Assembly (NCBI GenBank): GCA_964435035.1
Contig: CAYSXR010000001.1
Span: 144,192 to 208,191, forward strand
DNA from: an uncultured Gammaproteobacteria bacterium
GTDB lineage: Bacteria > Patescibacteriota > Patescibacteriia > Magasanikbacterales > UBA922
Reading direction: 5' to 3'
DNA: 64,000 nt
The translations under genes were made by a program, and so were the position numbers. Below the pieces are notes generated by a model. That model saw only the letters and a list, made by a program, of their open reading frames with translations. It did no database searches and was not told where the DNA came from. Below, one piece after another: positions 19,550-61,854 of the stretch. Positions within the stretch are counted from its first letter, which is position 1, and every line of letters begins with the position of its first letter.

Positions 19550-19582
19550 GAAAACATCCTCCTCATACCTTGTAAAGACTAG

Positions 19583-38774: not shown

Positions 38775-38776
38775 CG

Positions 38777-42070: not shown

Positions 42071-42183
42071 TAAATTCAAAACTTAAATCTCAAAATTCAA
42101 AACTGGAATTCAAAATTCCGGGAGATGAAAGTTTTAAGATTTAAGTTATAGTTTTGAACTTTGAGTTTTACATTTTGAATTTA
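42071..42183. repeat. A/T-word intergenic repeat (family C, copy 1)
   Basis: Built from aaattcaaaac / cttaaa / gttttgaac words. Shares the exact 20-mer gttttgaactttgagtttta with 61816-61835 and the 16-mer aaattcaaaacttaaa with 51673-51688. Confidence 0.6.
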
Positions 42184-42220
42184 ATATATTATTTCCATCA
42201 CTATTTAAACTTAGTCTACT

Positions 42221-43377: not shown

Positions 43378-43399
43378 ATTATTTTTTAAATCTGTGTGT

Positions 43400-46240
43400 A
43401 TGGTAGCGATATCCCCCGAACAATCAGTACCGCAAGAATCACGAAAGAAAAAAACACCTGATACGGTAAAAATAGAGAAATATAGTGAGGTGTGGGAGCA
43501 TGCAAAAAATCTGGAGGGTAAAATAAAAAAACTCAAAGAACATGCAATCGATGCGGATGAAATCGGAGAAATAGAAGGTATTCTCAAAGATGCAAAAGGA
43601 TATTTTTCTAGATTTGGAGAGAAAAAAGATAAAGGCAGAAGTGTTGCTCAGCTTGAAGAGAGGCGTAAGGCTGCAGTAGAAAAACTTACTGACCTTAATC
43701 GGCGCATGGTGTCGATGCTTGAAAAATTAGGACAACCAATTCCTAATACTCTTTTGTCGTACAAAGACAGTGGATTTGTTGATATTGTAAAAGAATCTAA
43801 TAAAGAAGGGTTGTCTGAAGAAAAAAAAGAAGAAGTGTCTGAAGTTGTGGGTGCTCATATAATTCAGCCCCCTGAAAATTATTCTAAAGAGTCATTGGGT
43901 GATTCAGAAATTGGTGGTGTGAATAGTATCGAGGCGCCAGAGAAGAAGGAAGAAGTGTTGGTTTCTGCCGAAGAGTCGCCTGTAAATGTACGAGAGGAAT
44001 CATCCTCACCTGAAACACCAATAGAAGATGTTATCAAGATTTCTTCAGGAGGAAAAACATATGAATTCGGCTGGCACGAACAGGTGGTTTACACTACTGC
44101 AAAGGGTAAGCAGCTTGAGTGTATTGTGCTTGGAAAATCAAATGATGAGAATAAGCCGGGGCTTATTTTGAAAGATCTTGAAAAAGGAAAAGTATTTGCT
44201 CTTGGTGCAGATGCGGTTGCAAAACGGGTACATGTTTCTGATGGTGAAATAGTTTCTCCACGTGTAGAAAATAATAAGGCCGATTCTGGTCAATCTGCTG
44301 AAGGTGAAGATATTGATAGAGAAGAAAAAGCTGCTCTTGAAAAAATGAAAAAAGACCAGAGGGAAGTAGAAGAGAAAAAAGCTCAAGAATTAAGTGAATT
44401 ATTAGCACAAGCTGGAAAGTCTGCCGAAGATGACACTTCATTTGTACACACAAGCACAGATGAGAGGGGAAGTTTCGATCAGAAGATGGTTGATAAACTT
44501 GTAGCTGATGGATCGATTGAAAAAATTAACACGTTATTGAAAAATAAATCCGAGGTGTGGGTACAGGAAGATGGTAAATGGTATCAGGGTGTAGTGCAAG
44601 ATATTACCGGAGCACAGGTGGGTGTTACTGTAGGAGAGGAGGGTCGAGAGAAAAAATATTTCTATGTGGATGCTGAAGAATTTTTGGGCATGCAGGATCG
44701 AGCGAAAAAATTGTTGAAATACAAAAAAGAATTAGAGCTTCCCTCGGTGGTGGTGGACACCGAATTCCTCGCTCGTCCAGATACGATCACCAAAGGTGAA
44801 ATTTTTACTCCTCCGACCGAGAGAAAGACCGTACCTGACGTGCCTCTAGTGAGTATTGATACTCCATTGCCGGTACGAGAACGAAAAACCTACCCAGAAG
44901 TTTCAGAAAAAAAAGCAATACAGATGATTCAATCAGTCGCTGAAGAATTTGAAAAAACATGGAAAGGAATGCGCATGATGACGACAGAAAAACAAAAGAC
45001 CGGATGGCTCCAGAGTAAGGAAGTTGAACGAGAGATGACGGTGACAGAAAAAAAGGAGCAATTAGAAGCGTGGCTTGATATGGTGGAGCAGGCATTTGAT
45101 TCACTCGACAAGCAAAAAGATGGGACACACATGGAAAAACCAGTACTCATGTGGCATCAGGCACAGGCATTAATTCGCGCATTAGAAAATGAACTTCGGT
45201 ATACAGAAGAAACGAATAAAAGTGAAGAGTGGGATCACGCACTTGAGGCTTTTAGTAGTATAATTAATGAAAGAAGCACACGTCTCAAGGAAAAAAAGAA
45301 AGGGTCATTGATTGCACCGTGGGCCATGAAAACGACACTTGCTGCCTTGGGTGCTTTTGCAATCGGAAATGCAACAAACAATCGAATAGAAGATGTGGCT
45401 GCAGTGAGTGAACGATATATGGAAGCAGGTGAAAAAAAATATGAATTACCCAGAGAAGAACATACGGGTGATGCACAGAGAAATATGCTAGATTTTGTAA
45501 TTAATATGAATCGGATGATAAACGAGCCCACACTTTCGATAACACCCGTTGCAATTGATGCTCGACTTACTCCACAGATCAAGGATAAAATATCAGGGAA
45601 AGTTCCGGGTTTGGCTGGTGCAGAAATAGCATCTGATGGAAAATCAGTTACATTGACTTTTGATAATAACCAAACAGTTGAAAGTCGTCCTGAAAAAATA
45701 CAAAAGTCGGGTCGCGATAGTTGGAAACTGAAGACAGCTGAGAAAAAGGGTCCGGAGTATGGCGAACAAATGTTGAGAGAATTAAGGAAAGTATTGGGTG
45801 AAGTAAAGCAAGAGTTTCCTGATATGTTTCGTGGACCAGAATCATCTTCCAAGCAAAAGAGAGTAGTAAGAACAGTAGTACAGGCCGAAAAGAAATTACG
45901 AGAAGCAGAGGTAGTAATACCGAGAAGTGGTGAGGCGAGAAGACAGTTGGAACAAGTAAAACAGGTGTTGGAACAAGTAAAACCAGGACTCGAATCTATT
46001 TCAAAAGAGATTGTAGATGAGATTAAGGCAGAGGATCTCGAATTGCCACAGGATGTATTTGTGCGTTTTAGTCGAGAGGTTACGTTTGATCCAAAGGCAG
46101 ATGCTCTATTTGAGGAATGGGGAAATGCACGAAATTCTCTCAAAGCAGCACAGGAAGCAGGAGATCAAGAGGGGGTAAAGAAAAGTAACGAGGAGTTGCG
46201 TAAGGTTATTGAAAAAATAACGAAAGAGTATAGTAAATAA
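43400..46240 (+). CDS. Large charged hypothetical protein with two SH3/Tudor-like beta segments
   Basis: About 946 aa, rich in Lys/Glu coiled-coil-like stretches, with one central hydrophobic segment (TTLAALGAFAIGNA). ATG 43400 preferred over GTG 43394. Confidence 0.6.
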   Translation: MVAISPEQSVPQESRKKKTPDTVKIEKYSEVWEHAKNLEGKIKKLKEHAIDADEIGEIEGILKDAKGYFSRFGEKKDKGRSVAQLEERRKAAVEKLTDLNRRMVSMLEKLGQPIPNTLLSYKDSGFVDIVKESNKEGLSEEKKEEVSEVVGAHIIQPPENYSKESLGDSEIGGVNSIEAPEKKEEVLVSAEESPVNVREESSSPETPIEDVIKISSGGKTYEFGWHEQVVYTTAKGKQLECIVLGKSNDENKPGLILKDLEKGKVFALGADAVAKRVHVSDGEIVSPRVENNKADSGQSAEGEDIDREEKAALEKMKKDQREVEEKKAQELSELLAQAGKSAEDDTSFVHTSTDERGSFDQKMVDKLVADGSIEKINTLLKNKSEVWVQEDGKWYQGVVQDITGAQVGVTVGEEGREKKYFYVDAEEFLGMQDRAKKLLKYKKELELPSVVVDTEFLARPDTITKGEIFTPPTERKTVPDVPLVSIDTPLPVRERKTYPEVSEKKAIQMIQSVAEEFEKTWKGMRMMTTEKQKTGWLQSKEVEREMTVTEKKEQLEAWLDMVEQAFDSLDKQKDGTHMEKPVLMWHQAQALIRALENELRYTEETNKSEEWDHALEAFSSIINERSTRLKEKKKGSLIAPWAMKTTLAALGAFAIGNATNNRIEDVAAVSERYMEAGEKKYELPREEHTGDAQRNMLDFVINMNRMINEPTLSITPVAIDARLTPQIKDKISGKVPGLAGAEIASDGKSVTLTFDNNQTVESRPEKIQKSGRDSWKLKTAEKKGPEYGEQMLRELRKVLGEVKQEFPDMFRGPESSSKQKRVVRTVVQAEKKLREAEVVIPRSGEARRQLEQVKQVLEQVKPGLESISKEIVDEIKAEDLELPQDVFVRFSREVTFDPKADALFEEWGNARNSLKAAQEAGDQEGVKKSNEELRKVIEKITKEYSK

Positions 46241-46261
46241 CATTTTGATATAGAGAAGAAA

Positions 46262-46297
46262 AATCACTGATAGCAGTCGGTGATTTTTTGTTTTTTT
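46262..46297 (+). terminator. Rho-independent terminator
   Basis: aatcactga-tagcag-tcggtgatt hairpin, then ttttttgttttttt. Confidence 0.75.
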
Positions 46298-46416
46298 AAG
46301 GTGTTTGGGCTAGAAATGTGCTAAAAAGTATGAGAGTAGTCAAAAGGGGCTACACCCTTTACTTTTTGTCAAAATTTGCATAAAGTACGTTAATGCTTAT
46401 TGTGGCAGGGGTATAC

Positions 46417-46445
46417 TTGACAAAAAGGTATAAATATGCTATAGT
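46417..46445 (+). promoter_or_regulatory. Consensus sigma70-type promoter (TTGACA-17-TATAGT) driving the GC-rich island
   Basis: acTTGACAaaaaggtataaatatgcTATAGTac is near-identical in layout to the promoter at 63780-63808. Confidence 0.7.
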
Positions 46446-46655
46446 ACTGCGTTATTTCAAAAGCCCTACATAGGTCTTCGAAATAGCAATCCAGGGGCCC
46501 CATCAGAGAGGATATGTGTCCCTTCTGATGGAGTCCCTGGTCTAGGAGCTCCCACTGTGGCCCGTTCGGGCAATAGTGAGAGCCTTAGGCTCATTACAAT
46601 CGAAGAAGCTAGAACACGTGCCCCTATGAAAGGGGTGTAAACGAGGAGATCAGAA
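46446..46655 (+). promoter_or_regulatory. Structured 5' leader of about 200 nt
   Basis: Nested helices ccaggg[ccatcaga...tctgatgg]ccctgg, gcccg-tt-cgggc, gagcc-tta-ggctc, and cccct-atgaa-agggg just before SD gaggag. No known riboswitch recognised. Confidence 0.45.
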
Positions 46656-48104
46656 ATGATTGACCGCAACAAGAAGAGCAACAAGAAGAGCACGCCCGTG
46701 AAGGGCGGCGCTGCGGCGAACCCGCAGGCGATGGCAACCGTGGCGTCTCACAAGGACGACACGGCTCAGATCGATGTGGTGGTCGAGACCAATCCCGAGG
46801 CCGACAAGGTCGAGGGTGAGGTCAAGGCCGATGAAGAGGCGAAGGTCGAAGAGACCGTCGCCACCGCCCCGACCGAGAACGTCGAGAAGAGCGAGGAGCC
46901 GGCCGTTGTGGTCGACCCCGAGCCCGAGCTCGAGCAGAAGCGGAACTTCCGTAAGGAAGACCTCCGCCTCCGGTACAACGACAACCCGCAGGTGCTGCTC
47001 ACCTCCGCGGATCTCAGCGAAGAGGACAAGGTCCTCATCGGCGAGATCGCGAGCGAGCAGAACCAGGTCGTCCGCGACTATGCCGCGCTGGCACAGGAGC
47101 TGACCGACGAGAAGGACCAGCTCGAGCAGAAGCTCGACGCGACCAACTCCAAGCTGGGGAACGTCACCAACCTCATCGCGACCACGGTCAAGGAGACCGT
47201 GGGACAGGTGGACAAGGAGACGTCGGCCTTGATCGAAGGTCTGAAGATCGAGATCGAGGGCGTCATCGGCAAGGGTAACGGCGTGAAGAACGCCGTCACG
47301 AAGATCGGGGACGATGTCAACAAGGACATCGGCTCGCTCAAGGGTCAGGTCAACGCCAACGCCAAGTCGGTCAACGACAAGGTCGATGGGATGGCCGCGA
47401 TGCTCGGGAAGATCGACGAGAAGATCTCCGAGATCAAGTCCCCGCCGCCCCCGCAGCAGCCGCCGGCTCAGTCCAGCACCACCCCGTCCTCCGGATCCTC
47501 CGGGTGGCCGTGGGTCGTGGCCGTGGGCATCTTGCTCGCGGCCGTGATCGCGGTCTTCCTCCTGAACAAGGATGTGAAGATCGAGGTCCAGGTGCAGCAG
47601 CCGGCGGTGAACACCGTGAAGGGTGTGGTGCCGCCGGTGGTGGACAACGCTCTCGGGGTGACCTCGCAGCAGGTGACCCCGGGTGGACCGGGGAATCCGA
47701 TCGTGCCCACGGTGGTCGGTGCCACGTCCGAGGATCCCTGCAAGGGGAAGGTCGGTGGGGAGCTCGGGTCGTGTGTCCTTCAGCTGGAGAAGTTCCGGCC
47801 GAAGGGGTTCACTGATGCGCACTGGAACACGGTCGTCGAGACCTTCCAGAACGTCATCATGGTCCCCTTGAGCGTTCCGTTCAAGGACATCAAGCACCAC
47901 GACAAGGCCATCGAGCACAACATGAGGAAAGACGCGGCACTGCAGGCGTGCGTCGACGCATACGTCTTGAAGACGGATGATGTCGAGTCGAACGTCCGGT
48001 GTCAGCGGGCGGTCGATTGTCTGTTCACTTCGGTGGACGAGGCAGCACAGTGCTACATGACGCATACGCGCTCGATCACGGGCGTTTTGGTCACTGTCAA
48101 CTGA
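46656..48104 (+). CDS. Bitopic membrane protein: acidic coiled-coil N-domain, Pro-rich linker, TM, Cys-containing C-domain (island gene a)
   Basis: 482 aa with an SD upstream. TM helix WPWVVAVGILLAAVIAVFLL. Seven Cys residues, all C-terminal to the TM. Extreme GC3 codon usage (AAG/GAG/GAC/AAC/ATC). Confidence 0.75.
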   Translation: MIDRNKKSNKKSTPVKGGAAANPQAMATVASHKDDTAQIDVVVETNPEADKVEGEVKADEEAKVEETVATAPTENVEKSEEPAVVVDPEPELEQKRNFRKEDLRLRYNDNPQVLLTSADLSEEDKVLIGEIASEQNQVVRDYAALAQELTDEKDQLEQKLDATNSKLGNVTNLIATTVKETVGQVDKETSALIEGLKIEIEGVIGKGNGVKNAVTKIGDDVNKDIGSLKGQVNANAKSVNDKVDGMAAMLGKIDEKISEIKSPPPPQQPPAQSSTTPSSGSSGWPWVVAVGILLAAVIAVFLLNKDVKIEVQVQQPAVNTVKGVVPPVVDNALGVTSQQVTPGGPGNPIVPTVVGATSEDPCKGKVGGELGSCVLQLEKFRPKGFTDAHWNTVVETFQNVIMVPLSVPFKDIKHHDKAIEHNMRKDAALQACVDAYVLKTDDVESNVRCQRAVDCLFTSVDEAAQCYMTHTRSITGVLVTVN

Positions 48105-48119
48105 ACCTCAACCCAACTA

Positions 48120-48145
48120 GTCCGACCTCCCTCGGGAGGTCGGAC
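48120..48145 (+). other. Intercistronic GC hairpin
   Basis: gtccgacctcc-ctcg-ggaggtcggac forms a perfect 11-bp stem between island genes a and b. No T-run, so probably not a full terminator. Confidence 0.5.
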
Positions 48146-48159
48146 ACAGGAGAACAGAC

Positions 48160-49095
48160 ATGAAGCAGCTCGTCGCGAAGATCGTGGTTTATTACATCGT
48201 ACTTCTCTCGGCGTCGGCCTTCGGCTCGACGCCGAACCCCGGTGACCAGTTCGACCTGATCCAGGGAGGGATCCCGGCGAAGGTCGAGGTCACGCAGCAG
48301 GAGATCAAGGCGATGGACACGTCCATCGACCAGCTCCTGAAGCGCACCGGCGGTCTCCTCAAGAAGGACGCCGAGCTCAAGAAGGAGCTCGAGGACCTCA
48401 AGAAGGAGCTCGAGGACCTCAAGAGCAAGCTCGACAAGGTGGTGAAGCCGGGTGATCTCACGGTCATCCGAGTGGATCTGGGAAGGTTGTGGACGCAAGT
48501 CAACAACCATGGACAGCGCCTCACCGAGCTCGAGCAGGACGTCGAAGATCTGAAGAGGAGCGACAAGGCTCAGGACGATCGACTCGGTGATCACGACCAG
48601 AAAATCGAGGACATCAACAAGCGCCTCGATCGAGGTCTCGGAGTGAAGTTCGGCATCGGAGCCTATGGCGTCTACGGGACGCAAGGCTCGATCAACGGTG
48701 GAGCTTCGGCTCGGCTGAGGATCCCGCTGTCCGGTGGATGGCAAGCGATCGTCAATGGCGGAGTCGGCGGCAACCATCAGGGAGCTTCAGGATTCGCCGA
48801 TCTGTCGGTCGGCTACCAGTTCGCGAGCGGCATCTACCTGGGGGCAACCCTCGGTATCGACGCCAACTGCGACGGTATGTGCACCAGGCTCCTCACGGAG
48901 ATCTGGGGCGCAGGTCCCGACATCGGCTACCTGTCCGACGATGGACTCTTCATCCGGGCTCGTGTGCTCTTCGGGAGCGAGTGGATCAAGGGTCCGACGA
49001 TGCAGATCGAGTACCCGGATCGTACGGTCTTCAAGACCGACGAGTCCCGGGAGTTCGGCATCTCGGCTTTGATCCAGCTCGGTCACGAGTTCTAG
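48160..49095 (+). CDS. Signal-peptide protein with coiled coil and C-terminal OMP-like beta-barrel ending in Phe (island gene b)
   Basis: 311 aa with signal peptide ..LLSASAFG and heptads ELKKELEDLKKELEDLKSKLD. The last 150 aa or so have alternating Gly/aromatic beta-strand patterns and end ..ALIQLGHEF. Confidence 0.7.
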   Translation: MKQLVAKIVVYYIVLLSASAFGSTPNPGDQFDLIQGGIPAKVEVTQQEIKAMDTSIDQLLKRTGGLLKKDAELKKELEDLKKELEDLKSKLDKVVKPGDLTVIRVDLGRLWTQVNNHGQRLTELEQDVEDLKRSDKAQDDRLGDHDQKIEDINKRLDRGLGVKFGIGAYGVYGTQGSINGGASARLRIPLSGGWQAIVNGGVGGNHQGASGFADLSVGYQFASGIYLGATLGIDANCDGMCTRLLTEIWGAGPDIGYLSDDGLFIRARVLFGSEWIKGPTMQIEYPDRTVFKTDESREFGISALIQLGHEF

Positions 49096-49346
49096 ACTTC
49101 AAGATTCGGGGAGTGTCTCTACTCCCCGGACCCCTCACCTCGCCGACTTCAAGGCAGAAGGGATAAGACAATGAGACAAACACTCGAGTAAACGGCGTGG
49201 TCGCACAACGCGGCCCCCAATACTGGAGCATGGGCGATATTTCGAAAGAAATGTCGCCCCTCGCACAGCGTATATCAGTCTCTGGTATGCGATGACGAGA
49301 AAAGCATCTCACGTAAATCCCGACTAAATCGGGACACGTGACAAGC

Positions 49347-49375
49347 TTGACAAACGAGAGTATTTATGCTATACT
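49347..49375 (+). promoter_or_regulatory. Consensus sigma70-type promoter (TTGACA-17-TATACT)
   Basis: gcTTGACAaacgagagtatttatgcTATACTaag, located inside an AT-rich spacer of the GC-rich island. Confidence 0.7.
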
Positions 49376-49498
49376 AAGCTGTTACAAAATAAAGAAGTGC
49401 CATGGGAAATCTCGATGTAGTCGGGGTATCTATGGTAGATCGTCATGCACTGCATGGTGGTCCATTGAACCTTACAATATATGCGAAATGTATAAAAA

Positions 49499-49543
49499 GC
49501 TTGAAAGGCTAGAAAGGCCGGAAAGGCTTGAAATGCTAGAGAA
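49499..49543 (+). repeat. Five tandem 9-nt repeats (GCYNGAAAG) in a 5' leader
   Basis: gcttgaaag gctagaaag gccggaaag gcttgaaat gctagagaa. Confidence 0.75.
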
Positions 49544-49551
49544 CGTATCTT

Positions 49552-49677
49552 GTGACGTGAAGAAAGAAATTTTCAATAAGAATTTTTTCTTAGCGTCACG
49601 AGGAGTTCTCAGGCGTGAAAACTTCTCGTGTGGTACACGAGGAAGCAACAACAAAACCCCGATTGAATCGGGGAGGA
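49552..49677 (+). promoter_or_regulatory. Leader with mutually exclusive hairpins and a hairpin abutting the SD
   Basis: gtgacg...cgtcac hairpin. cttctcgtg (49622-30) can pair with cacgaggag (49597-605) or with cacgaggaag (49636-45). ccccga-ttgaa-tcgggg overlaps the 5' edge of SD ggaggag. Confidence 0.45.
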
Positions 49678-49685
49678 GAAGAGTC

Positions 49686-51452
49686 ATGAAGAAGTTCAAC
49701 AAGTTCCTGTTCGTCGTCATGTTCATCTCGTTCGTCGCGGCCATCACGGGCTGCGCCGATCACGGTGGCGAGACGGTCGTCGTCAAGGGTGACGATGGGG
49801 AGAGCGTCAAGCTCTGCCCCGAGGAGCATCAGTGCTCCTCGGCCGAGTTCTGCAACTCGCAGGGTCTCTGCGTCATCCCCGGTGCCAACGGCACCAACGG
49901 CGAGGACTTCGAGCGATGCTCGAATAGTCGTGGTGACTGTGTCGGTAACGAGCTCTGCAACTCGCAGGGCGTGTGTGTGCTCGAAGGTCCGCAAGGGCCG
50001 GCGGGGGAGTCCTGTACCGTGTCGACGAAGGTCGACGGGTGCTTCTTCCTCTACTGTGGCGCAAGCGTCACGGAGATCTGCGACGGCGAGGACGGTGTGT
50101 CCTGCACGGTCGCAGGGCAGCCGGACGGCAGCGCTCAGGTCGAGTGCTCGGACGGTTCGTTCGCGACCATCCTCCCCGGACAAGACGGCGAGGACGGTCT
50201 CAACGGCACGAGCTGCACGGCCTCGACGGTCAAAGGTTGCCTCGTGGTGACCTGCGGAACGCAGTCGACGGAGATCTGCCCGGAGGATCTTCCGGATCCC
50301 GAGCCGGTCGACGGCTGCCAGAAGGACTCGGACTGCACGGACGGCAGCGAGTGCACCAACGACATCTGCGATCTCAACACCGGCACCTGCCGGTACGTGT
50401 CGCAGGTGTGTGATGACGGCGTCGCCTGCACCAACGACTGGTGTGACACGAACGGCTACTGCCGTTCGACCGCGGACAATGATCAGTGCAGCGGCGGCGA
50501 CTTCTGCTTGCCGACCGGTTACTGGTTTTGGTCCTCGGCGGTGGGTTCTGAGGAACTCGCTGACGGAGGCTGTTACGAGTGCCGCTGGGACTCTGATTGT
50601 GCCGACGGCGACGCGTGTACGGTCGACACCTGCGACGCGGGTGTTTGCAAGAAGGAAACGCGCGAGTGCCCCACGGGTGCGACGTGCGTCGAGTACTCGA
50701 GCAACTACTACGACGACTCGGAGTGGAACTACGTGTGCCAGGACAATCCGTCGTGCAGCAACAACAGCCAGTGCGACGACGGCAAGTACTGGACGACGGA
50801 TGCGTGCGTGGCCGGGGAGTGTGTCTACACCCAGGTGTCGTGCAACGACAACAACGCATGCACCGTGGACACGGTGAACTCGAGTGGGCAGTGCACCTAC
50901 GCCCAGATCTCGTGCGACGATGGCAAATCCGCCACGGTCGACACGTGCTCTGCGAATACGGGGTGCGTACACACGCCGGTGAACACCGGCTGCGAGCACG
51001 ATCTCGATTGCGATGACGTCGACGGTACGACCACGGACCTGTGCGAGGACAACGGGAGCTGTACACATACTCCCAATGCCCAGTGCAAGTCCCTGACGGT
51101 CAAGGTCGGCTGGGCCATCCTGTGGTCGCGCGGTCCCGAGATCGGAACCACCAATGTCCCGATGGGCAACTGGCGTAGCTGCGAGGAAGACGAGGCGGAG
51201 AACTGCCGTACCATGTCGTGGTGCGGTGACGACATCGTGGAGTTCAATGTTCAGCAGATGCCGAACGTGGCAGGTGCCGACTGGCTCGTGAAGAACGAGA
51301 AAGGCGACAGCCCTTGCACGTCGAACGCAGATGCGACCTTGAACTACACGCCCGCTGATCTCTTCGTCGGGGCGACGCCGGTGCAGAAGGGCTGTTCGCT
51401 CTTCTGCGACCCGAACGGGTACACCAACTACACCTGCGATTCCGCGGAGTAG
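49686..51452 (+). CDS. Cys-rich repeat lipoprotein (island gene c)
   Basis: Start MKKFNKFLFVVMFISFVAAITGC (lipobox) follows SD ggggaggag. Repeats of the form C.(D/N)D.C....G.C, resembling Dictyostelium-CTDC-type units. The ORF-track start at 49338 was rejected. Confidence 0.75.
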   Translation: MKKFNKFLFVVMFISFVAAITGCADHGGETVVVKGDDGESVKLCPEEHQCSSAEFCNSQGLCVIPGANGTNGEDFERCSNSRGDCVGNELCNSQGVCVLEGPQGPAGESCTVSTKVDGCFFLYCGASVTEICDGEDGVSCTVAGQPDGSAQVECSDGSFATILPGQDGEDGLNGTSCTASTVKGCLVVTCGTQSTEICPEDLPDPEPVDGCQKDSDCTDGSECTNDICDLNTGTCRYVSQVCDDGVACTNDWCDTNGYCRSTADNDQCSGGDFCLPTGYWFWSSAVGSEELADGGCYECRWDSDCADGDACTVDTCDAGVCKKETRECPTGATCVEYSSNYYDDSEWNYVCQDNPSCSNNSQCDDGKYWTTDACVAGECVYTQVSCNDNNACTVDTVNSSGQCTYAQISCDDGKSATVDTCSANTGCVHTPVNTGCEHDLDCDDVDGTTTDLCEDNGSCTHTPNAQCKSLTVKVGWAILWSRGPEIGTTNVPMGNWRSCEEDEAENCRTMSWCGDDIVEFNVQQMPNVAGADWLVKNEKGDSPCTSNADATLNYTPADLFVGATPVQKGCSLFCDPNGYTNYTCDSAE

Positions 51453-51669
51453 TCGTACCCACAAACATTTCGTGTAAAAGCTTTGAGTAGCCTAGCTACC
51501 AGACTCAAAGTTCAATCAACGTAGCGGGAGGGGGCACAAGCGTTCATCTGAATTGCGCAAGCGATTCAGTGACGAGTGCCTCCCTCCCATTCCAACATAT
51601 CTTTATCAAAATTCAGAACTCAGATTACAGTGAGAGACTAGTGAGTATTGGTAGAGAGATGTGGGGATG

Positions 51670-51727
51670 GAAAATTCAAAACTTAAAACTTAAAACTCAA
51701 AATTTAGATTTAAGTTGTGAGTTATTA
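51670..51727. repeat. A/T-word intergenic repeat (family C, copy 2) inside the GC-rich island
   Basis: gaaaattcaaaacttaaaacttaaaactcaaaatttagatttaagttgtgag. Confidence 0.55.
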
Positions 51728-51795
51728 CAAACCCTTTCCATCATTATGATGGTTTCAATTCCCCTCAACCGCGACGACAGAAATGTCACGCGCGG

Positions 51796-51821
51796 AAAAA
51801 ACCCGCGCATGCGGGTTTTTT
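51796..51821. terminator. Strong bidirectional terminator
   Basis: aaaaaacccgc-gcat-gcgggtttttt. Confidence 0.85.
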
Positions 51822-51913
51822 AAATTCCATTACCTCGGGTATATCGTATAATGATGGTATATCTATGGTAGAGGAATTCTACACGCCAGTTCACAAAAAC
51901 CAGGAGGGGACAC

Positions 51914-52651
51914 ATGTTGGGTATGACGTTTCGTTTGTTTGTTTTCTGTCTCACCGTGTTCACCGCCGCATGCATCGAGGATATGCGGCGGGAGGAAGCG
52001 TCCATGGTCCAGGTCGATACGTCGACTGGCATCATGGATATGGTGGAGGAAGTCAAAGACGTACCAGATTCACGGGTCCGTGATCGGTATGATATCGAAT
52101 TTCCTCCTACAGCCGACGAGTGTGTCGTCGATGAATTCATCGCAGAGGGAAGCCCTTGCGATGATGGCGATGCATGCACGATCGATGTCTGTATCCAGGG
52201 CATGTGTCGTAATCGAGCTATCGACTGCGACGACGGAAATCCCTGGACGGATGACGAGTGCATCGTCGACACTGGGGCGTGCTCCAGTGTACATCGGGTG
52301 ACTCATTTCACCGTTCGCGCGGAGCGTCCGGGAAAGGTGAAGCTTTGGTATGGGAATCACACCGAGCCAGAGACCTATCCCATGAACTCGAGCTTCGAGA
52401 TCCAGAAGATGGATCTCTGCGTCGAGAACCGTGTGCTCACGCTCGCGGTAGAGGACGAAGAGTTCCCGGGAACCTACTGGGGTTGTAACCCTGGCCTTCC
52501 TTCGAAGAGGGAACTCGCAGTCGAGATCGACGGGGTGGACACGCCCGGTTATTTCGCTGCGGATCTCGGATGGGAGGTGCCCAACTCTGCGTGTGGTGGG
52601 AAGGGAGAGGGTGACCTCTACTTCTTGCGGGCGCAACTCGCATGTGACTGA
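51914..52651 (+). CDS. Small Cys-rich lipoprotein sharing the C-terminal domain of gene e (island gene d)
   Basis: SD aggagggg upstream. Signal peptide ..LTVFTAAC. Two Cys-rich units (CDDGDACTIDVC, CDDGNPWTDDEC). The C-domain motif CNPGLPSKRELAVEIDGV matches CNPGFPSKSTLTVMVNGV in gene e. Confidence 0.7.
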   Translation: MLGMTFRLFVFCLTVFTAACIEDMRREEASMVQVDTSTGIMDMVEEVKDVPDSRVRDRYDIEFPPTADECVVDEFIAEGSPCDDGDACTIDVCIQGMCRNRAIDCDDGNPWTDDECIVDTGACSSVHRVTHFTVRAERPGKVKLWYGNHTEPETYPMNSSFEIQKMDLCVENRVLTLAVEDEEFPGTYWGCNPGLPSKRELAVEIDGVDTPGYFAADLGWEVPNSACGGKGEGDLYFLRAQLACD

Positions 52652-52739
52652 TGACCGGGTGTCTCGCGAAGGATAGGATGGCGTATACGCTATGCTGTCC
52701 ACCTTCGCGAGCACCACTAATTCAACAAATAGAATTATA

Positions 52740-52768
52740 TTGACAAAATACTCTTTTCCTGATATGTT
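52740..52768 (+). promoter_or_regulatory. Putative promoter (TTGACA-17-TATGTT)
   Basis: The -35 is consensus and the -10 is weak. A leader of about 220 nt follows, with the long hairpin ctagagg..ccctctag (52881-52946). Confidence 0.45.
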
Positions 52769-52998
52769 GATACGATTGTATCTACGCATATCGGATATCT
52801 AGAGAGGTATCTGGTATGCGCCACTGGAGAATCATTCTCAAGTGTGTATGTTCATTATAATCACATAAGTTTTTTGTTCAGCTAGAGGATGGGTGCAGAT
52901 AGAGGTATATGTAACATATCTTGTATCGATAGCCACCCTCTAGCTGAGACACAGTGTCACTGCTGGAGTTCAACGGCCTCACAACGGAGGAAGGCCAA

Positions 52999-55041
52999 AT
53001 GCGTCTGAAGAACAACAACAACCGGATGTTCATCATCACGGTTGCCCTCGCCATGGGGTTCATGGCGGCGTGCACGGAACACGGCGGCGACGAGCCGATC
53101 GTGGTCGTGATGAAGGCGGACCTCGACCTCGACGAGGTCCCCAACAACGTCGACAACTGCCCGGGGGACAACAACCCCGATCAGTTGGACACCGACGGCG
53201 ACGGCATGGGCGATGCGTGCGACAACGACGTCGACGGCGACGGGGTCTTGAACCCCGCCGACAACTGCCCCGACAACTTCAACCCCGACCAGGCGAACCT
53301 CGACAAGGTCCTGGCCGACAGCGGCAACGTCACCGTGGTCGCGGATCTCTTCGGAGACGTCTGCGACAACGACGACGACGGCGACGTGGTCTGCGACCCC
53401 TGGCTCGGCGTGGACGGGTGGGAAGAATTCCATCCCGGTCAGGGCGAGACGTGTCAGGGCGAGGACAACTGTCCCGACGTCGCCAACGCCGACCAGGCGA
53501 ACCTCGACAAGGACTTCGAGGGCGACGTCTGCGACAACGACGTCGACGGCGACGGCGACCTCAACGGCGCAGACAACTGCCCGCTCGTGACCAACGCCGA
53601 CCAGGCAAACCTGGATCGGGACGACTGGGGCGACGCCTGCGACACCGACGACGACAACGACAGCTTCTGCGACGAAGCTGCCCCCGTCTCGATGCCGCGA
53701 AATGCGCCCGCGATGCCCCTCTGCGAGGGCGAGGACAACTGCCCCCGCTTCAAGAACGCGGGACAGGAAGACATGGACGAGGACGGCATGGGCGACGTCT
53801 GCGACGACGACTGCGACGGGGACCTCTACCCCGAAGCGTCGCCCTGGGATTTCCCCAACCTGTCGTGCTTCGTGTATTGCAATCCGGAAGGTCCGGGAAC
53901 CGAGTGCGACGACGCGAACACGTGCACCACGGACACCTGCAACGGGCAGGGCGTTTGCGAGTACGTGTTCACGCAGTCCGAGACGTGCGAATGCGTCTTG
54001 GACTCCGACTGCGAGCCGACCGACGCCTGCGTCACCGAGATGGCGTGCGTGGAAAACACGTGCGTCGAGACCGGATGGAAGGTCCTGACCGACGGGGACA
54101 ACTGCACCATCGACACCTGTGATCCCTCGACCGGCGTGGTCACCCACGTCGAGAAGGACTGTGGTGGGGACCTCTGCGGAGGAGGCCTCTCGTGTAACCG
54201 CATGACCGGAGAGTGCAGCACACCCGTGCCGCAAATTCCGATCAACGACAGCAACGCCTGCACCACCGACGCGTGCGATCCCGAGACCGGCGTGGTCACC
54301 CACGTCGCGATCGTCTGCGACGATGGGAACGCATGCAACGGCACCGAGACGTGCAACCCGGCTTCCGGGTGCGTCGCGGGTACGCCGCTCACGTGCGATG
54401 ACGGAAGCGTCTGCACGATCGACAGTTGTTCGGCAAACACCTGCCAACACGTGGCGGTGACGACGAACGACAACAACATGTGCACCACCGACACCTGCGA
54501 TCCCGAGATGGGGGTGCAGCACACGGCGGTGGTGTGCAACGACGTGAACTCCAACACCACCGACACCTGCGATCCGGCGACGGGTTGCGTGCACACGCCG
54601 ACGGGGAACTGCACGGTCAACGCGGATTGCAACGACAGCAATCCCCTGACCTACGACACCTGCGTCGCGCTCGTCTGCCAACATGTGGAAGGTGTCCGCG
54701 TGCAGGTCTCGTCGACCGACACGTCGGAGACCTGGCAGGTCAATTTCTACTACAACGGTACGACGATCTCCGGCAACCTGCCCTTCGACGGGACCTTGCC
54801 GAAGACGCTCGCATGCAGCTGGGGCGCCGACATCGCCGTCAACCGTCCGAGCACGAACTTGTTCTTGGACTGCAACCCGGGGTTCCCCTCGAAGTCCACC
54901 CTGACCGTCATGGTCAATGGTGTCACGAAGGCGAACGACTTCCAGGTTCGTTCGCAGGCATGCGACGGCGCTCCGCCGGGCAACCTGTGGCTCTCCGACG
55001 AGAGCGGTGACAACGACCTGGGATGCCCCGCGGCACCCTAG
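52999..55041 (+). CDS. Lipoprotein with thrombospondin-type-3-like Ca-binding repeats and Cys-rich repeats (island gene e)
   Basis: SD ggaggaagg, then MRLKNNNNRMFIITVALAMGFMAAC. Repeated DNCPxxxNxDQxDxDxDGxGDxCDxDxDGD units, then repeated CxxDxCDPxTGxxH units. The mature N-terminus CTEHGGDE resembles CADHGGE of gene c. Confidence 0.75.
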   Translation: MRLKNNNNRMFIITVALAMGFMAACTEHGGDEPIVVVMKADLDLDEVPNNVDNCPGDNNPDQLDTDGDGMGDACDNDVDGDGVLNPADNCPDNFNPDQANLDKVLADSGNVTVVADLFGDVCDNDDDGDVVCDPWLGVDGWEEFHPGQGETCQGEDNCPDVANADQANLDKDFEGDVCDNDVDGDGDLNGADNCPLVTNADQANLDRDDWGDACDTDDDNDSFCDEAAPVSMPRNAPAMPLCEGEDNCPRFKNAGQEDMDEDGMGDVCDDDCDGDLYPEASPWDFPNLSCFVYCNPEGPGTECDDANTCTTDTCNGQGVCEYVFTQSETCECVLDSDCEPTDACVTEMACVENTCVETGWKVLTDGDNCTIDTCDPSTGVVTHVEKDCGGDLCGGGLSCNRMTGECSTPVPQIPINDSNACTTDACDPETGVVTHVAIVCDDGNACNGTETCNPASGCVAGTPLTCDDGSVCTIDSCSANTCQHVAVTTNDNNMCTTDTCDPEMGVQHTAVVCNDVNSNTTDTCDPATGCVHTPTGNCTVNADCNDSNPLTYDTCVALVCQHVEGVRVQVSSTDTSETWQVNFYYNGTTISGNLPFDGTLPKTLACSWGADIAVNRPSTNLFLDCNPGFPSKSTLTVMVNGVTKANDFQVRSQACDGAPPGNLWLSDESGDNDLGCPAAP

Positions 55042-55226
55042 AACTTCTCCTGCGACGACTGCAGGAGCATCTCGAAGTGAACGTGTGATTCGCTTCTGTA
55101 GGTGAATGTTCGAAGACAATCACACAAACCGGGGGAAGTGCGCTCGCTACTACAGCGACCGCTTCCTCCCCTCTACTCTGAATTCAAGTACGATCTTGAG
55201 AATAGAGTAGAAGGGCACGCTAGAAT

Positions 55227-55248
55227 AACCGCACTATGCGGTTTTTTT
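55227..55248 (+). terminator. Rho-independent terminator at right edge of island
   Basis: aaccgca-cta-tgcggtt followed by ttttt. Confidence 0.8.
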
Positions 55249-55253
55249 GTTAT

Positions 55254-55355
55254 GTCATTCCGAGCGAGTGCACCCGAGCCGAGGAATCTTTCCTGTATAA
55301 GACCATGTAAGAAAGATTCCTCGACTCCCTCGGAGACTCGGTCGCTCGGAATGAC
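55254..55355. repeat. Palindromic MITE-like element (family D, solo copy)
   Basis: Perfect 14-bp termini gtcattccgagcga / tcgctcggaatgac and inner 13-bp inverted repeat cgaggaatctttc / gaaagattcctcg. Its arms match the arms of the copies at 61107 and 61583. Confidence 0.75.
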
Positions 55356-55416
55356 TATCGTCACTTTTTCTTTTTTTAATTTCCCCCTTGCTTGTGATAT
55401 ACTTATCTAGAATTTT

Positions 55417-56493
55417 ATGAAACAAATCCATGTCGTGCATATCATTCCCAAGCTTGGTTTCGGTGGAGCCGAGCGTTTTGTGGTTGAACTTGCCAAGCAT
55501 ATGCCATCCAAGAATATCCGCCAGTCAATTATTACCCTGTGGGATGATCGTCCGCTGATGAAGGAATTACCTGATTCAGTTTCGTGCACCGTGTTTCCTT
55601 TTGATCGTATCGGATATATACATCGGATTCCAAAGCTTACAAAAATGCTTCGAGAAATGCAGGCTGATATAGTGCATACACATCTTTTTAGTGCAGATCT
55701 ATGGGGGAGGCTTGCAGCAAAGTCACTGGGGATTCCGGTAGTTACGACTGAACATAATATCAATGTAGGAGAATCGTGGCTCTGGGGAAGAATCAAACGT
55801 GCAATGAAAAAATATTCTCGCGTGTACACCGCACCATCAAGTGCTGTTCGAGAGTATATGAAAACGGCGTATGGGATTGCAGTTGAAAATACTCGAGTGA
55901 TTATGCATGGTATCGAATTAGAACATTTTATCAAAATAAAACCTGCAGCTTTTGCCCCACCATACAAGCTACTCATGATGGGAAGAATGGTAGAACAAAA
56001 AGGGCATTCAATTGCGCTTGATGCATTACAAAAAATTAGAGATATTTCGTGTACGCTTACGATGGTGGGTGATGGAGAAAAAAAAGAATCGCTCATGCAC
56101 TATGCAAAAGAATTAGGAGTAAGTGATCGAGTGATATGGAAATCAGCCACCGAGAATGTGTCGAGAGAATATGCAACAGCAGACATCGTACTCGTTCCAT
56201 CACGATGGGAAGGATTGGGAATTGTGGTATTTGAAGCGCTCGCAAGTGAGAGATTGGTAATCGGATCTCGGGTCGGAGGAATTCCTGAAATTATTATTGA
56301 TGGAGAAAATGGTCGATTGATTCCCGTAGAAAATAGCGACGCACTTGCAGATGCAATTCGGGCAAGTGTGAAAAATCAATTAGCTTCAAAAAAAATTGCA
56401 AAGCAGGGTCGTGTCTGGGTAAAAGAACAAGGAAGTGTTGCACGTATGACTGAAGCATATGAGGCACTGTATCAGGAAGTAGTAAAAAAATAA
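55417..56493 (+). CDS. Glycosyltransferase family 4 (GT-B)
   Basis: 358 aa with N-terminal GGAERFV and a C-terminal EGLGIVVFEALASERLVIGSRVGGIPEII (E-x7-E region). Confidence 0.85.
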   Translation: MKQIHVVHIIPKLGFGGAERFVVELAKHMPSKNIRQSIITLWDDRPLMKELPDSVSCTVFPFDRIGYIHRIPKLTKMLREMQADIVHTHLFSADLWGRLAAKSLGIPVVTTEHNINVGESWLWGRIKRAMKKYSRVYTAPSSAVREYMKTAYGIAVENTRVIMHGIELEHFIKIKPAAFAPPYKLLMMGRMVEQKGHSIALDALQKIRDISCTLTMVGDGEKKESLMHYAKELGVSDRVIWKSATENVSREYATADIVLVPSRWEGLGIVVFEALASERLVIGSRVGGIPEIIIDGENGRLIPVENSDALADAIRASVKNQLASKKIAKQGRVWVKEQGSVARMTEAYEALYQEVVKK

Positions 56494-56500: not shown

Positions 56501-57976
56501 ATGGCTGAAGCGACGACTTCAAAATTTACCTGGTTTCTCGGTGTTTCCACACTTATGGTGGCACTTATTTTTGCTATCATGTTGAAGGGGAATATAGTGG
56601 TTGCAGCCATCCTTGGGTTTTTGATAATTTTATTTTTTTCCTATCATTTGGAAATTGGTCTGTATGTATTACTCATTCTCTATCCACTCATCGGATGGGA
56701 ATTCCATGCAAATATGTTTCGGGGACTACTCGGTTCGAGTTCTACGGTGCTTGAATTCTATGCGCCGATGGTCGATGTGTGGGCACTTCTTATGGTTGGT
56801 GCATATGTCTTTTATCTAATTCGCAAGTGGCTGTATGGCGAGAAGCATCGGATTTACCTGCCCGAATTTGGATGGTATTCATTATTTATTATCTCAGCAG
56901 TACTGTCTCTGATAAATGTTGCAGGGTGGGAATTACAGACAAGTGTTTCGTATATTGTCCGTTTCCTCTTGTTTGTGTATCTAGCATATGTAGTACTTGG
57001 TACAAATATTATGCGTACCAAAAAAATATTACATCGTGCACTTGAAGTCGTCGTATGGATTAGTGTGCTTGGTGCACTATTAGGACTTCTCTCGTTTGCG
57101 ATTGGTCCGGGGCGTGGAGTGATGCGTGCAGTTCCTATTCCTGTATTTGGATGGCAACCATTCAATTATGATATGGTGAGTGGACATATCCTTCTAGCAG
57201 AAGTGCTTGTAGTGGCATTCCCAATCGCCATATATCTCGCATTGAGGGCGAAAACTGATGCACAAAAAATTGCATATACCATTGCGAGTGCGATATGTGG
57301 AATAACTGCATTTCTTACCTTTTCTCGCGCGAGCTGGCTCACACTTATGGTGCAGGGAATGTTGGCACTCTATATATTTCGTTCGCAGATCAAATGGACA
57401 AAAATCAGAGGATATTTTTTTACCTCACTCCTATTCTTGATTCCGGCAGGAGCGTATATGGCACTGCTTCTACAGAGTGCAGTGGTATCGTCATCCAATA
57501 GTACGCGTATTACTCTAACTGAAGTTGCATGGAGTTTTTTTCTCGAACATCCTCTCGTAGGACAGGGTGCAGGAACATTTGTAGAGAGATTGCGTGATAT
57601 ACATTATTTTACGTATGAATTTGGCGCTCCGATTGATGCGCATAGTATTCTTATGAAAATTCTTGCTGAGCAGGGAATACTCGGGATCGTCACCTTTGGG
57701 TTGTTTATCGGATTATTATTATTTTCAATATATAAGCGAACAATTGCCAAAGAATATAGCGCTGAAGCTCGTGGAGTGGCACAGCTGTGTTTGTTTTTAA
57801 TCATTGTGCCCTTATTTTTTCAGATGTTTAATACACAATATTATTCGGCGCGTATGTGGGTACCATTCATGCTCGCGATTGCGGCACATCTCCTGTATCG
57901 CCACGAGCATGAAGGGGACGCATTCTATACGCACTTCCGTCCGAATAAATACAAGATTGATACTGACGTTACCTAA
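56501..57976 (+). CDS. O-antigen ligase/polymerase-like (Wzy_C) membrane protein
   Basis: 491 aa with more than 10 TM helices and a central FSRASWLTLMV-type loop. Confidence 0.75.
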   Translation: MAEATTSKFTWFLGVSTLMVALIFAIMLKGNIVVAAILGFLIILFFSYHLEIGLYVLLILYPLIGWEFHANMFRGLLGSSSTVLEFYAPMVDVWALLMVGAYVFYLIRKWLYGEKHRIYLPEFGWYSLFIISAVLSLINVAGWELQTSVSYIVRFLLFVYLAYVVLGTNIMRTKKILHRALEVVVWISVLGALLGLLSFAIGPGRGVMRAVPIPVFGWQPFNYDMVSGHILLAEVLVVAFPIAIYLALRAKTDAQKIAYTIASAICGITAFLTFSRASWLTLMVQGMLALYIFRSQIKWTKIRGYFFTSLLFLIPAGAYMALLLQSAVVSSSNSTRITLTEVAWSFFLEHPLVGQGAGTFVERLRDIHYFTYEFGAPIDAHSILMKILAEQGILGIVTFGLFIGLLLFSIYKRTIAKEYSAEARGVAQLCLFLIIVPLFFQMFNTQYYSARMWVPFMLAIAAHLLYRHEHEGDAFYTHFRPNKYKIDTDVT

Positions 57977-61106: not shown

Positions 61107-61244
61107 GTCATCCCGAGGGAGGAGTGCATCCGACGATTCGAGGGATCTTTCCTGCATAAGGCTGATTAGGAAAAATGTATTTAAAGCTTAGTAAGGACTT
61201 GGTAGGAAAGATTCCTCGACTCGGGTGCACTCGCTCGGAATGAC
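61107..61244. repeat. Palindromic MITE-like element (family D, copy 2)
   Basis: gtcatcccgaggga...tcgctcggaatgac. The right arm matches the reverse complement of the left arm of 55254-55355 with one mismatch. Flanks extend the inverted repeat (taatgt/acatta). Confidence 0.75.
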
Positions 61245-61287
61245 ACATTAAGTAATTGTATTGGGTGGTAAAAAGTAAGGGGGTAGT

Positions 61288-61566: not shown

Positions 61567-61582
61567 TGGTGTGATTGGTATT

Positions 61583-61719: not shown

Positions 61720-61794
61720 AGTGAATAGCTCGGAATCAGGTCACAGAAGTTGCAAATATGCTTGGATCAAGTATCATTACCTTGAAGAATAAGA

Positions 61795-61843: not shown

Positions 61844-61854
61844 GATAGATATCT

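Follow-up and report, generated by a model that had tools for sequence, protein, structure and literature searches.

A long-resident, hypervariable island of predicted envelope genes with inverted codon usage and putatively structured transcripts in Candidatus Magasanikbacteria

The window analysed here is a 64-kb stretch of DNA (contig CAYSXR010000001.1 of assembly GCA_964435035.1, forward-strand positions 144,192 to 208,191) labelled as an uncultured Gammaproteobacteria bacterium and placed by GTDB in the Patescibacteriota (Magasanikbacterales, UBA922). It is a chromosomal segment whose housekeeping genes include pheS, pheT, pyk, ppdK, infC-rpmI-rplT, smpB and the tmRNA gene, and between about 46.5 and 55.1 kb it carries five GC-rich genes, P1 to P5, referred to below as the island. 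This compositional island is real, natural and long-resident, and it appears to be actively maintained; it is not a classical mobile element, a recent insert or an artefact. Comparison with related contigs showed that it is an ancestral, syntenic and hypervariable cluster of predicted envelope genes in a Candidatus Magasanikbacteria clade within the candidate phyla radiation (CPR, Patescibacteria). The explanation favoured for its composition, which is given an even chance of being correct, is that of a long-resident, possibly anciently acquired, hypervariable envelope module in which selection for transcript structure preserves the GC-ending codons.

Along the window, GC content is near 0.40 but climbs to 0.56-0.67 in the 46.5-55.1 kb interval (42.7% for the window overall, about 40% outside the island). 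An earlier note on this DNA, made from the letters alone, had described a flip from AT-rich to GC-rich sequence at 46.47-55.1 kb; this is borne out, and its coordinates for the five coding sequences (CDSs) proved exact. The genes are listed with their GC content at first, second and third codon positions (GC1/GC2/GC3) and the main features of their products.

46656-48104, plus strand: P1;.62/.37/.88; 482 aa, with a disordered Lys/Glu-rich N-terminus, a coiled coil, a Pro-rich linker and a transmembrane (TM) helix at about residues 286-303
48160-49095, plus strand: P2;.62/.38/.81; 311 aa, with a predicted signal peptide, coiled coil and C-terminal eight-stranded beta-barrel ending in Phe
49686-51452, plus strand: P3;.53/.51/.84; 588-aa lipoprotein with lipobox ITGC and Cys-rich Dicty_CTDC-type repeats
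51914-52651, plus strand: P4;.60/.44/.65; 245-aa lipoprotein with lipobox TAAC, one Cys-rich repeat region and a C-terminal domain common with P5
52999-55041, plus strand: P5;.59/.46/.89; 680-aa lipoprotein with lipobox MAAC, thrombospondin type 3 repeats and Dicty_CTDC repeats

The excess sits at third positions, as had been claimed: a GC3 of.65-.89 stands against about.3 in the rest of the window, where the 30-odd other open reading frames (ORFs) range from.21 to.45 with the exception of two small ORFs at 15.4-16.4 kb. The rise is CDS-exact and runs from first codons to stop codons. Codon usage is inverted between island and background, so that the preference read by eye for Lys AAG (.94 vs.20), Glu GAG (.82 vs.26), Asp GAC (.75 vs.19), Asn AAC (.87 vs.16) and Ile ATC (.97 vs.21) is confirmed, and TTC follows the same pattern (.93 vs.20). 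Translational optimisation is excluded as the cause of these codons, because the genes for L20 (rplT), L35 (rpmI) and IF3 (infC) have a GC3 of.26-.37 and the island codon table is the inverse of that of the ribosomal-protein genes. Long antisense ORFs (46650-48065, 49596-51464 and 52957-55119) remain open over island genes because island GC3 is so high; on the related contig L011 (8467-9987, minus strand) the gene caller took the antisense ORF (506 aa) in place of P1.

The island recurs at the same site in five or more related lineages of Candidatus Magasanikbacteria. Gene order, promoters and GC3 (.74-.90;.59-.65 for the fourth gene) are shared between the window and the related contigs L005, L006, L008, L010, L012 and L013. 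Where contigs are long enough, the order is IF3, SmpB, three conserved ORFs, Wzz, DUF5663, a small ORF, a large coiled-coil protein and the GC-rich genes, with a glycosyltransferase (GT) cluster to the right of the island. The GC3 level of each gene is kept across lineages (orthologues of P1.85-.90, P2.74-.82, P3.78-.84, P4.59-.62 and P5-like genes.74-.79), and the three island promoters are kept in sequence and position in all lineages. No island-less site was found among the related contigs that reach the locus (six or seven lineages). The earlier note had considered that wzz might lie directly beside the GT cluster in relatives; this arrangement occurs in none of them, and in L010, whose flanks share 88-93% DNA identity with the window, the GC-rich island stands between the two.

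The age of this contrast can be gauged from the flanking genes, whose synonymous divergence (dS) from the window lineage is.38-.51 for L010,.7-1.3 for L005 and at least 1.4 for L008. Four-fold degenerate sites in the L008 flanks are 29-40% identical to those of the window lineage, compared with 28% expected at saturation. Despite this, GC content at four-fold sites (GC4) of P1 stays at.86-.89 in all lineages. When P1 alleles from distinct lineages are compared, about 20% of the four-fold sites of conserved residues differ by exchange between G and C (range 10-27%) and 9-19% by exchange between G/C and A/T; the corresponding values in the flanks are 2-9% for exchange between G and C and 22-50% for exchange between the two classes. 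Because so much turnover between G and C has taken place at P1 four-fold sites, the alignments indicate that island GC3 is a maintained equilibrium rather than a decaying relic.

These observations bear directly on recent horizontal acquisition, the reading of the first analysis, in which foreign CDSs were newly placed behind resident promoters and have not yet been ameliorated. The donor-like GC-rich codons, the Shine-Dalgarno (SD) sites that resident genes are without, and TSP_3, Dicty_CTDC and a barrel like those of outer membrane proteins (OMPs), all domain types common in GC-rich diderms, speak for it. It is nevertheless very improbable, given that the same locus, untranslated regions (UTRs) and promoters occur in all lineages examined, one of them with saturated flanks, and that four-fold sites show abundant turnover at compositional equilibrium. 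The search for a donor by protein homology that the earlier note had proposed yielded none, using P1, P2 and P5 against 5.8e9 proteins and a P2 profile against 1.84e9 representatives. P1 and P2 retrieved only same-context relatives, four each among the 5.8e9 proteins and all in AT-rich context, those of P1 beside Magasanikbacteria-type genes; the P2 profile found two full-length relatives among the representatives, and P5 matches covered repeats only (coverage at most 53%). The recent, mosaic or artefactual placement implied at the outset is thus not upheld, as the contrast persists even where flank four-fold sites are saturated.

Mobility genes are absent as well. Pfam and NCBIfam scans of island and flank ORFs revealed no integrase, transposase or recombinase gene, and no bounding direct repeats were found at 46.4/55.2 kb. 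The nearest RNA genes (tmRNA, 38776-39173; tRNA-Asp, 36492-36566) lie about 7 kb away with conserved genes between. In this respect the earlier note was right, both in reporting no integrase, transposase, tRNA attachment site or bounding repeats and in holding that this is not a classical prophage, integrative and conjugative element or transposon; empty sites are likewise lacking. A classical mobile island was therefore rejected, there being no recombinase gene and no insertion at a tRNA gene or direct repeat, and all related contigs at the site carrying the island. A diversity-generating retroelement target was also rejected, with no reverse transcriptase domain among the window ORFs scanned and no repeat resembling a template/variable pair.

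A chimera of GC-rich and AT-rich DNA, arising in assembly or binning, has next to no probability. It could be suspected from contigs that often end in or near the island and from two related metagenome-assembled genomes labelled Gammaproteobacteria. However, Logan contigs assembled per run reproduce the window letter for letter through its internal junctions and the right one (L003, 49097-55344; L004, 51625-55355; L001, 55326-61235), and their breaks lie inside the dispersed palindromic repeat at 55253-55358. The left, AT-to-GC, junction is spanned by seven further contigs of other samples. Among the relatives, L006, which comes from a different run, matches the window at 100% over 45601-46500 before continuing into GC-rich P1, and L010 carries both island borders on one 224-kb contig. 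Chimeric junctions, which the earlier note had listed as a possible refutation, are not borne out by these assemblies. The two carriers titled 'uncultured Gammaproteobacteria', L008 (CAZMEW010000013.1) and L010 (CAYUTO010000002.1), have the Magasanikbacteria-type locus and are probably mislabelled.

A second foreign-type signal besides codon usage is added by translation initiation. All five island genes have a strong SD site, with anti-SD duplex energies of -7.1 to -10.5 kcal/mol (P1 -7.2, P2 -7.1, P3 -10.1, P5 -9.5). Resident gene starts are without one in 32 of 33 cases (energy above -6 kcal/mol, mean -0.5) and have A/T-rich upstream regions; this SD-less set includes tightly coupled operon starts, e.g., ...ttaattATG. 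The same contrast between island and flanking genes was observed in L005, L008, L010 and L013. The regulatory and untranslated elements of the island are as follows.

46417-46445, plus strand: P1-P2 promoter, TTGACA-N17-TGcTATAGT, 11 of 12 consensus positions, extended -10
46446-46655, plus strand: P1 5' leader, three hairpin domains, open SD (AGGAG) before the ATG
48105-48159, plus strand: P1-P2 intercistronic region, GC-rich hairpin GTCCGACCTCCC..GGGAGGTCGGAC, SD of P2, no T-run
49096-49312, plus strand: P2 3' UTR element, structured, 217 nt, six lineages aligned
49347-49375, plus strand: P3 promoter, TTGACA-N17-TGcTATACT, conserved in L006, L007, L008, L010, L011 and L012
49376-49685, plus strand: P3 5' leader, structured, SD (GGAGGAG)
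51453-51913, plus strand: P3-P4 spacer, 3' hairpins, conserved block, resident repeat, SD of P4
51787-51822, plus strand: terminator-like hairpin with T-run, inside the P3-P4 spacer
52740-52768, plus strand: P5 promoter, TTGACA-N17-TGaTATGTT, positional equivalents at L010 15655 and L008 15825
52769-52998, plus strand: P5 5' leader, perfect hairpin GATACGATTGTATC at its very start, SD (GGAGGA)
55042-55252, plus strand: P5 3' UTR, intrinsic terminator at 55227-55250
55253-55358, no strand assigned: dispersed palindromic repeat, TGTCATTCCGAGCGAG...CTCGCTCGGAATGACA, at the right border, with copies at 61135-61245 and 61580-61720

These elements divide the island into four transcription units, P1-P2, P3, P4 and P5. 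P1 and P2 are probably co-transcribed, since the intercistronic hairpin is without a T-run. The combination found in each unit is unique in the window: a consensus promoter (in three of four units), a structured leader, a strong SD site, a G/C-ending CDS and a structured 3' end. The earlier note had seen TTGACA-N17-TATAnT promoters in the spacers, which is true of three of the four promoter-bearing spacers; the fourth, before P4 (51.45-51.9 kb), holds merely a -10-like TATAAT at 51847-51852 and no full consensus promoter. Their claimed resemblance to the promoter at 63780 was verified: the window scan placed that promoter in the same consensus class, together with one at 15325 and those ahead of the tRNA-Asp and tmRNA genes (eight window matches vs 2.65 expected). 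The P1-P2 promoter site is also present in L005, L006, L008, L010 and L013. Transcription from the three island promoters would begin at about 46452, 49382 and 52775.

The spacers had been described as AT-rich resident regulatory DNA. They are AT-rich relative to the CDSs (GC.42-.47) but lie about 10 points above background intergenic DNA (mean.445 vs.342), and the alignments point to island-specific, conserved, structured UTRs that are better conserved than the genes, rather than generic resident DNA. Of the view that foreign-type CDSs sit behind resident regulatory DNA, the foreign codon usage and the resident-consensus promoters therefore stand, while the generic nature of the spacers does not. 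The P1 leader (210 nt) has 87% mean column identity over five lineages with long invariant blocks, which is above both the CDS and the flanks of the window lineage and L008; its first hairpin begins within a few nucleotides of the inferred transcription start, and RNAalifold predicted 56 pairs, mostly invariant, that leave the ribosome-binding site open. The P2 3' UTR has 64 predicted pairs, 12 of them with compensatory double changes among the six lineages, and in the alignment of the P3 leader whole hairpins are swapped between lineages for different, compensating hairpins. A 120-nt window at 48121, over the P1-P2 junction, reached a folding z of -9.2. In searches against Rfam 15, the tmRNA and two tRNAs were the sole features of the window to attain the gathering score, and nothing credible was detected in 46200-55500 at E<=1.

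One background intergenic repeat had been noticed inside a spacer at 51670-51727, and it was indeed found there. It is a dispersed TCAAAACTTAAAAC-type, AT-rich, tandem-like element at 51672-51713 (insertion 51672-51740), with other copies at 42072-42201, 61794-61852 and 7943-7984. The orthologous spacer of L010 is without it, and it appears to be a later insertion specific to the window lineage, which argues for long residence of the island. The palindromic element at the right border, about 100 nt long and imperfect, has copies that bracket the glycosyltransferase/Wzy cluster and coincide with Logan contig ends.

The coding regions themselves are predicted to fold in excess. Folding of 120-nt windows was compared with synonymous-codon shuffles that keep both protein and codon usage, and native island CDSs were 8-18% more stable than their shuffles, with z of -4.4 for P1, -6.5 for P2, -5.4 for P3, -5.5 for P4 and -4.7 for P5. 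The AT-rich controls (a 948-aa gene at the left of the island, a GT gene, pyk and pheS) gave -0.7 to +0.2. Orthologues in L010 (-2.8 to -5.7) and L008 (-4.5 to -6.6) behave like the island genes, and the signal survives shuffling within local blocks of 40 codons (-2.6 to -7.2). Eight genes of a GC-rich Polyangiaceae contig, one of them a TSP3 homologue, displayed no excess (-1.8 to +1.9). With dinucleotide shuffles, mean z is -2.07 in the window island (44% of windows below -2) vs -0.26 in the rest of the window, -1.52 in the L010 island vs -0.59 in its flanks, and -0.06 in Polyangiaceae. On the sense strand the excess pairing slightly outweighs that on the antisense strand. It is also diffuse: long perfect palindromes or template-switch hairpins were rejected as its source, as perfect stems are merely about 2-fold enriched.

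Such folding weighs on the proposal that selection for slow, non-optimal decoding alone, in the service of export and oxidative folding, produced the island codons with RNA structure as a by-product. This remains an unlikely explanation, although all five products are predicted to be exported or membrane proteins with extracytoplasmic Cys, island Cys content is 6.1% vs 0.6% in the background, and the island codons are rare in the genome and inverse to those of the ribosomal-protein genes. Native sequences fold better than shuffles of equal codon usage, the conserved structured UTRs are left unexplained, and P1 and P2 contain few Cys. Elsewhere in the window, AT-rich genes with ordinary codons encode further large secreted proteins (1112, 1997 and 616 aa), and secretion alone therefore cannot explain the GC-ending codons.

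In terms of sequence divergence, the island belongs to a larger unit:

44314-55395, plus strand: hypervariable replacement region, including the C-terminal two thirds of the 948-aa protein (43394-46240)

DNA identity with L010 is 88-94% up to 44314 and 90% from 55395, and between these points it is 66-80% or the sequences are unalignable. At the protein level, identity is 92-100% in the flanks, drops to 57% for the 948-aa protein and reaches just 38-46% for the island proteins (overall range for island proteins 38-61%). The ratio of nonsynonymous to synonymous divergence (dN/dS) lies at.42-.73 for the island genes, with.72 for P1 in each pair, compared with.01-.15 in the flanks. Recombination is apparent from several observations. 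The similarity ranking for P1 (L006 > L005 > L008 > L010) is incongruent with that of the flanks (L006 > L010 > L005 > L008), and the window and L006 are 100% identical over 45601-46500 (900 nt), 22-80% in the N-terminal half of P1 and 95-100% thereafter. L010 carries one more P5-like gene, whose 3' spacer is duplicated along with it, the P5 3' UTR of the window being 77-80% identical to the two L010 copies, one behind each P5-like gene. No 7- or 8-mer is enriched, which gives no sign of an uptake-signal or Chi-like motif. With divergent alleles at one position between conserved flanks, recombination mosaics between these alleles and an adjoining Wzz/Wzy/glycosyltransferase cluster, the island by all sequence comparisons appears to be a replacement-type surface-antigen locus. 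The 948-aa Lys/Glu-rich protein is a cytoplasmic coiled coil with neither TM helix nor signal peptide; its gene is hypervariable from about 44314 (dN/dS.31 vs L010), yet has ordinary AT-rich codons and a GC3 of.31.

In such a recombining locus, regional GC-biased gene conversion (gBGC), or a mutation bias at a recombination hot spot, could raise GC throughout, with the UTRs remaining AT-richer only through constraint. Biased conversion in recombining bacterial genes is established from comparative genomics, and a GC3 raised in a recombining locus is what it resembles here. The P1 mosaic tract between otherwise identical strains, the incongruent P1 phylogeny, the raised GC of the island spacers and an antisense strand that is also over-paired are all in its favour. 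It is still judged quite unlikely. Variable and gapped UTR columns have a GC of.44-.55 (variable columns.45-.47) against.86-.89 at four-fold sites, the equally hypervariable adjacent 948-aa gene is unaffected, and the effect is far larger (GC3.3 to.88), bounded by first codons and stop codons, and held at gene-specific levels across lineages. Nor does it predict folding beyond synonymous shuffles.

Another way in which the contrast might be renewed is that alleles are imported again and again from a GC-rich source outside present sampling (a GC-rich sister lineage, a phage or a plasmid), with the UTRs serving as homology arms. The UTRs are the best conserved parts, allele divergence is star-like, most pairs of P1 alleles from distinct lineages having a four-fold identity of about.64 (range.62-.75), and P1 divergence is decoupled from flank divergence. 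On the other hand, all of the approximately eight contigs with P1 or P2 relatives have AT-rich Magasanikbacteria flanks, and resident repeats have been inserted in the spacers. A tblastn search of phage records with P1 and P2 gave no matches, and neither the P1 alignment nor the invariant P1 leader pattern had a match in the metagenome contig collection. This possibility is thus considered improbable.

Selection on transcript structure is favoured because neither gBGC nor selection for rare codons predicts folding beyond codon-preserving shuffles. Under this explanation, selection on the transcript would hold G/C-ending codons at compositional equilibrium, and these codons would supply the base-pairing capacity for a compact mRNA made up of 5' hairpins, the ORF and a 3' element. 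The likeliest purposes would be to prolong the life of the mRNA, to slow down the decoding of disulfide-rich secreted proteins, or to do both. The SD sites may compensate for the fact that structured GC-rich mRNAs could not use the SD-independent initiation by which residents would start on AU-rich leaders. Meanwhile the proteins would diversify rapidly, and recombination would exchange alleles between lineages. The domain types and SD sites make plausible a single, ancient entry of the cluster into the lineage from a GC-rich diderm that uses SD sites, but such a foreign origin by itself does not explain the persistence of GC3.

Several points weigh against selection on transcript structure. 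The comparison covers only 64 kb of the genome and six or seven lineages. The Wzy-like gene at 56501-57976 is AT-rich and has a z of -3.3, the sole deviating background gene among five tested. The over-paired antisense strand makes a cause at the DNA level possible, and the AT-rich genes for secreted proteins count here as well. P1 dS between the window lineage and L008 is 0.48, a low value that could come from later allele exchange instead of synonymous constraint. For specific conserved helices inside CDSs the evidence is modest and suggestive: when codons 275-392 of P1 are given a consensus fold, built from the very alignment on which it was then tested, 89.8% of cells are paired over five alleles (64-80% identical) and 10 pairs are doubly changed. 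The pairing level was reached in 0 of 500 shuffles and the covariation score in 1 of 500, and controls with the partner slid by 1-3 columns gave 33-55% of cells paired; the RNAalifold covariation terms in the CDS are unfavourable (+3.4). What the RNA structure is for is pure inference.

As regards the products, predictors of envelope exposure (signal peptides, lipoboxes, a TM helix and a beta-barrel) recur across the five proteins, and on these models P1-P5 together look like an envelope or host-contact module. The C-terminal part of P1 is predicted to be a Cys-containing helical domain that follows the single TM helix, but the pLDDT of 44 is too poor for a fold search. P2 was modelled by AF2 with pLDDT 80-92 over residues 163-310 and eight long strands (input alignment of five sequences), and Foldseek matched it with probability 1.0 to the barrels of OpcA, NspA, Ail, OmpW, OmpA, OmpX and OprF. 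The model thus has the antiparallel eight-stranded barrel and the C-terminal aromatic residue (Phe) of small OMPs such as OmpA, OmpX, OmpW, Ail, NspA and OpcA. Unlike these, P2 carries an N-terminal coiled coil and matches no Pfam or NCBIfam OMP family. Members of the host phylum are commonly considered to have no outer membrane. P5 matched the Pfam families TSP_3 (3.6e-22) and Dicty_CTDC (7.6e-28).

Among known systems, the closest kinds are replacement flexible islands and stabilised mRNAs of envelope proteins. The former, like other surface-antigen loci (O-antigen, S-layer), share the conserved flanks, divergent alleles, mosaics and high dN/dS, here beside a Wzz/Wzy/glycosyltransferase cluster, yet none is known with a stable codon inversion, a separate initiation signal or UTRs that far outconserve the genes. 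Messengers stabilised by 5' stem-loops or structured ends are exemplified by E. coli ompA, B. subtilis aprE, S-layer gene leaders and hok mRNA. The island resembles them in its long leaders, hairpins at or near the 5' end, open ribosome-binding sites, strong promoters and envelope products, which are abundant in those systems, and differs in that the whole CDS is predicted to be over-structured and is recoded. Acquired genomic islands show a similarly sharp compositional contrast, foreign-style codons and ribosome-binding sites, and surface-protein cargo. Here, by comparison, there is no integrase, tRNA site or direct repeat, one locus is occupied in all relatives examined, no amelioration has occurred despite saturated flanks, and the contrast is confined to CDSs, with promoters and repeats of resident type. 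GC-rich rRNA and tRNA genes of AT-rich genomes likewise tie local GC to base pairing, and the tRNA-Asp and tmRNA promoters belong to the same class; the island, unlike them, is protein-coding, with codon periodicity and recognisable domains. The literature searched contained no report of stable codon inversion combined with an SD-only gene subset, structured CDSs and UTRs that outconserve genes, and nothing relevant was found on GC3, codon usage or Shine-Dalgarno sites in Magasanikbacteria or Patescibacteria.

The island is a counter-example to the rule that atypical GC and codons mean recent transfer, its GC3 inversion of about 0.55 units being stable across species with saturated flanks. It suggests that synonymous sites and mRNA folding are under strong selection in particular genes, a surprise for slow-growing symbionts of very small size, in which codon selection should be negligible. 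It also places two initiation regimes, SD-led and SD-less, in one genome, and offers a candidate host-interaction apparatus that includes an OMP-like barrel in a phylum thought to be outer-membrane-less. For metagenomics, antisense gene calls and contigs that break at the island are practical consequences, and composition-based binning or labelling may fail, two carriers being labelled Gammaproteobacteria. Somewhat short of even odds is the broader proposal that CPR bacteria hold a distinct 'structured-coding' gene class in which codon choice is subordinate to RNA folding. A far longer shot is that the island is a host-directed expression module, whose mRNAs or DNA would be delivered to a GC-rich Gram-negative host and translated there. 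This idea was raised because sigma-70 promoters, strong SD sites, GC-ending codons and heavily folded (RNase-resistant) transcripts would suit such a host while being atypical of the symbiont, and because the products need diderm machinery (a barrel with C-terminal Phe, lipoproteins, disulfide-rich domains). If true, it would be a bacterial analogue of T-DNA or effector delivery at the level of nucleic acids.

Outside the island, a GC-enriched patch at 15325-16392 stands beside tRNA-Lys (16574-16647) and consists of two small ORFs with strong hairpins between them:

15431-15772: small ORF, 113 aa, GC3.72, TTGACA-N17 consensus promoter upstream (15325), strong SD
15976-16392: small ORF, 138 aa, GC3.61, weakly SnoaL-like, strong SD

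This mini-island has the same promoter class, SD sites and raised GC3, but is treated as separate from the main island because its CDSs show no excess folding (z -0.1 and -0.9). The intergenic region at 19471-19914 (444 nt, between a P-type ATPase gene and the pyruvate kinase gene) has a GC of.44 vs.34 for the background, and the 1.2-kb bin that holds most of it (19201-20400) has a mean folding z of about -1. Finally, weakly P2-like proteins of the same architecture include one (E 1.4e-4, a match too weak to use) that is encoded at 10001-10960 of L015, a Logan contig of about 101 kb from ERR7850096. Like P2, it has a signal peptide, a CKNGKC motif, a coiled coil and a barrel ending in F, and its contig is phage-like, with an intein-containing ribonucleotide reductase, RecA, a GIY-YIG endonuclease and PolIII alpha.

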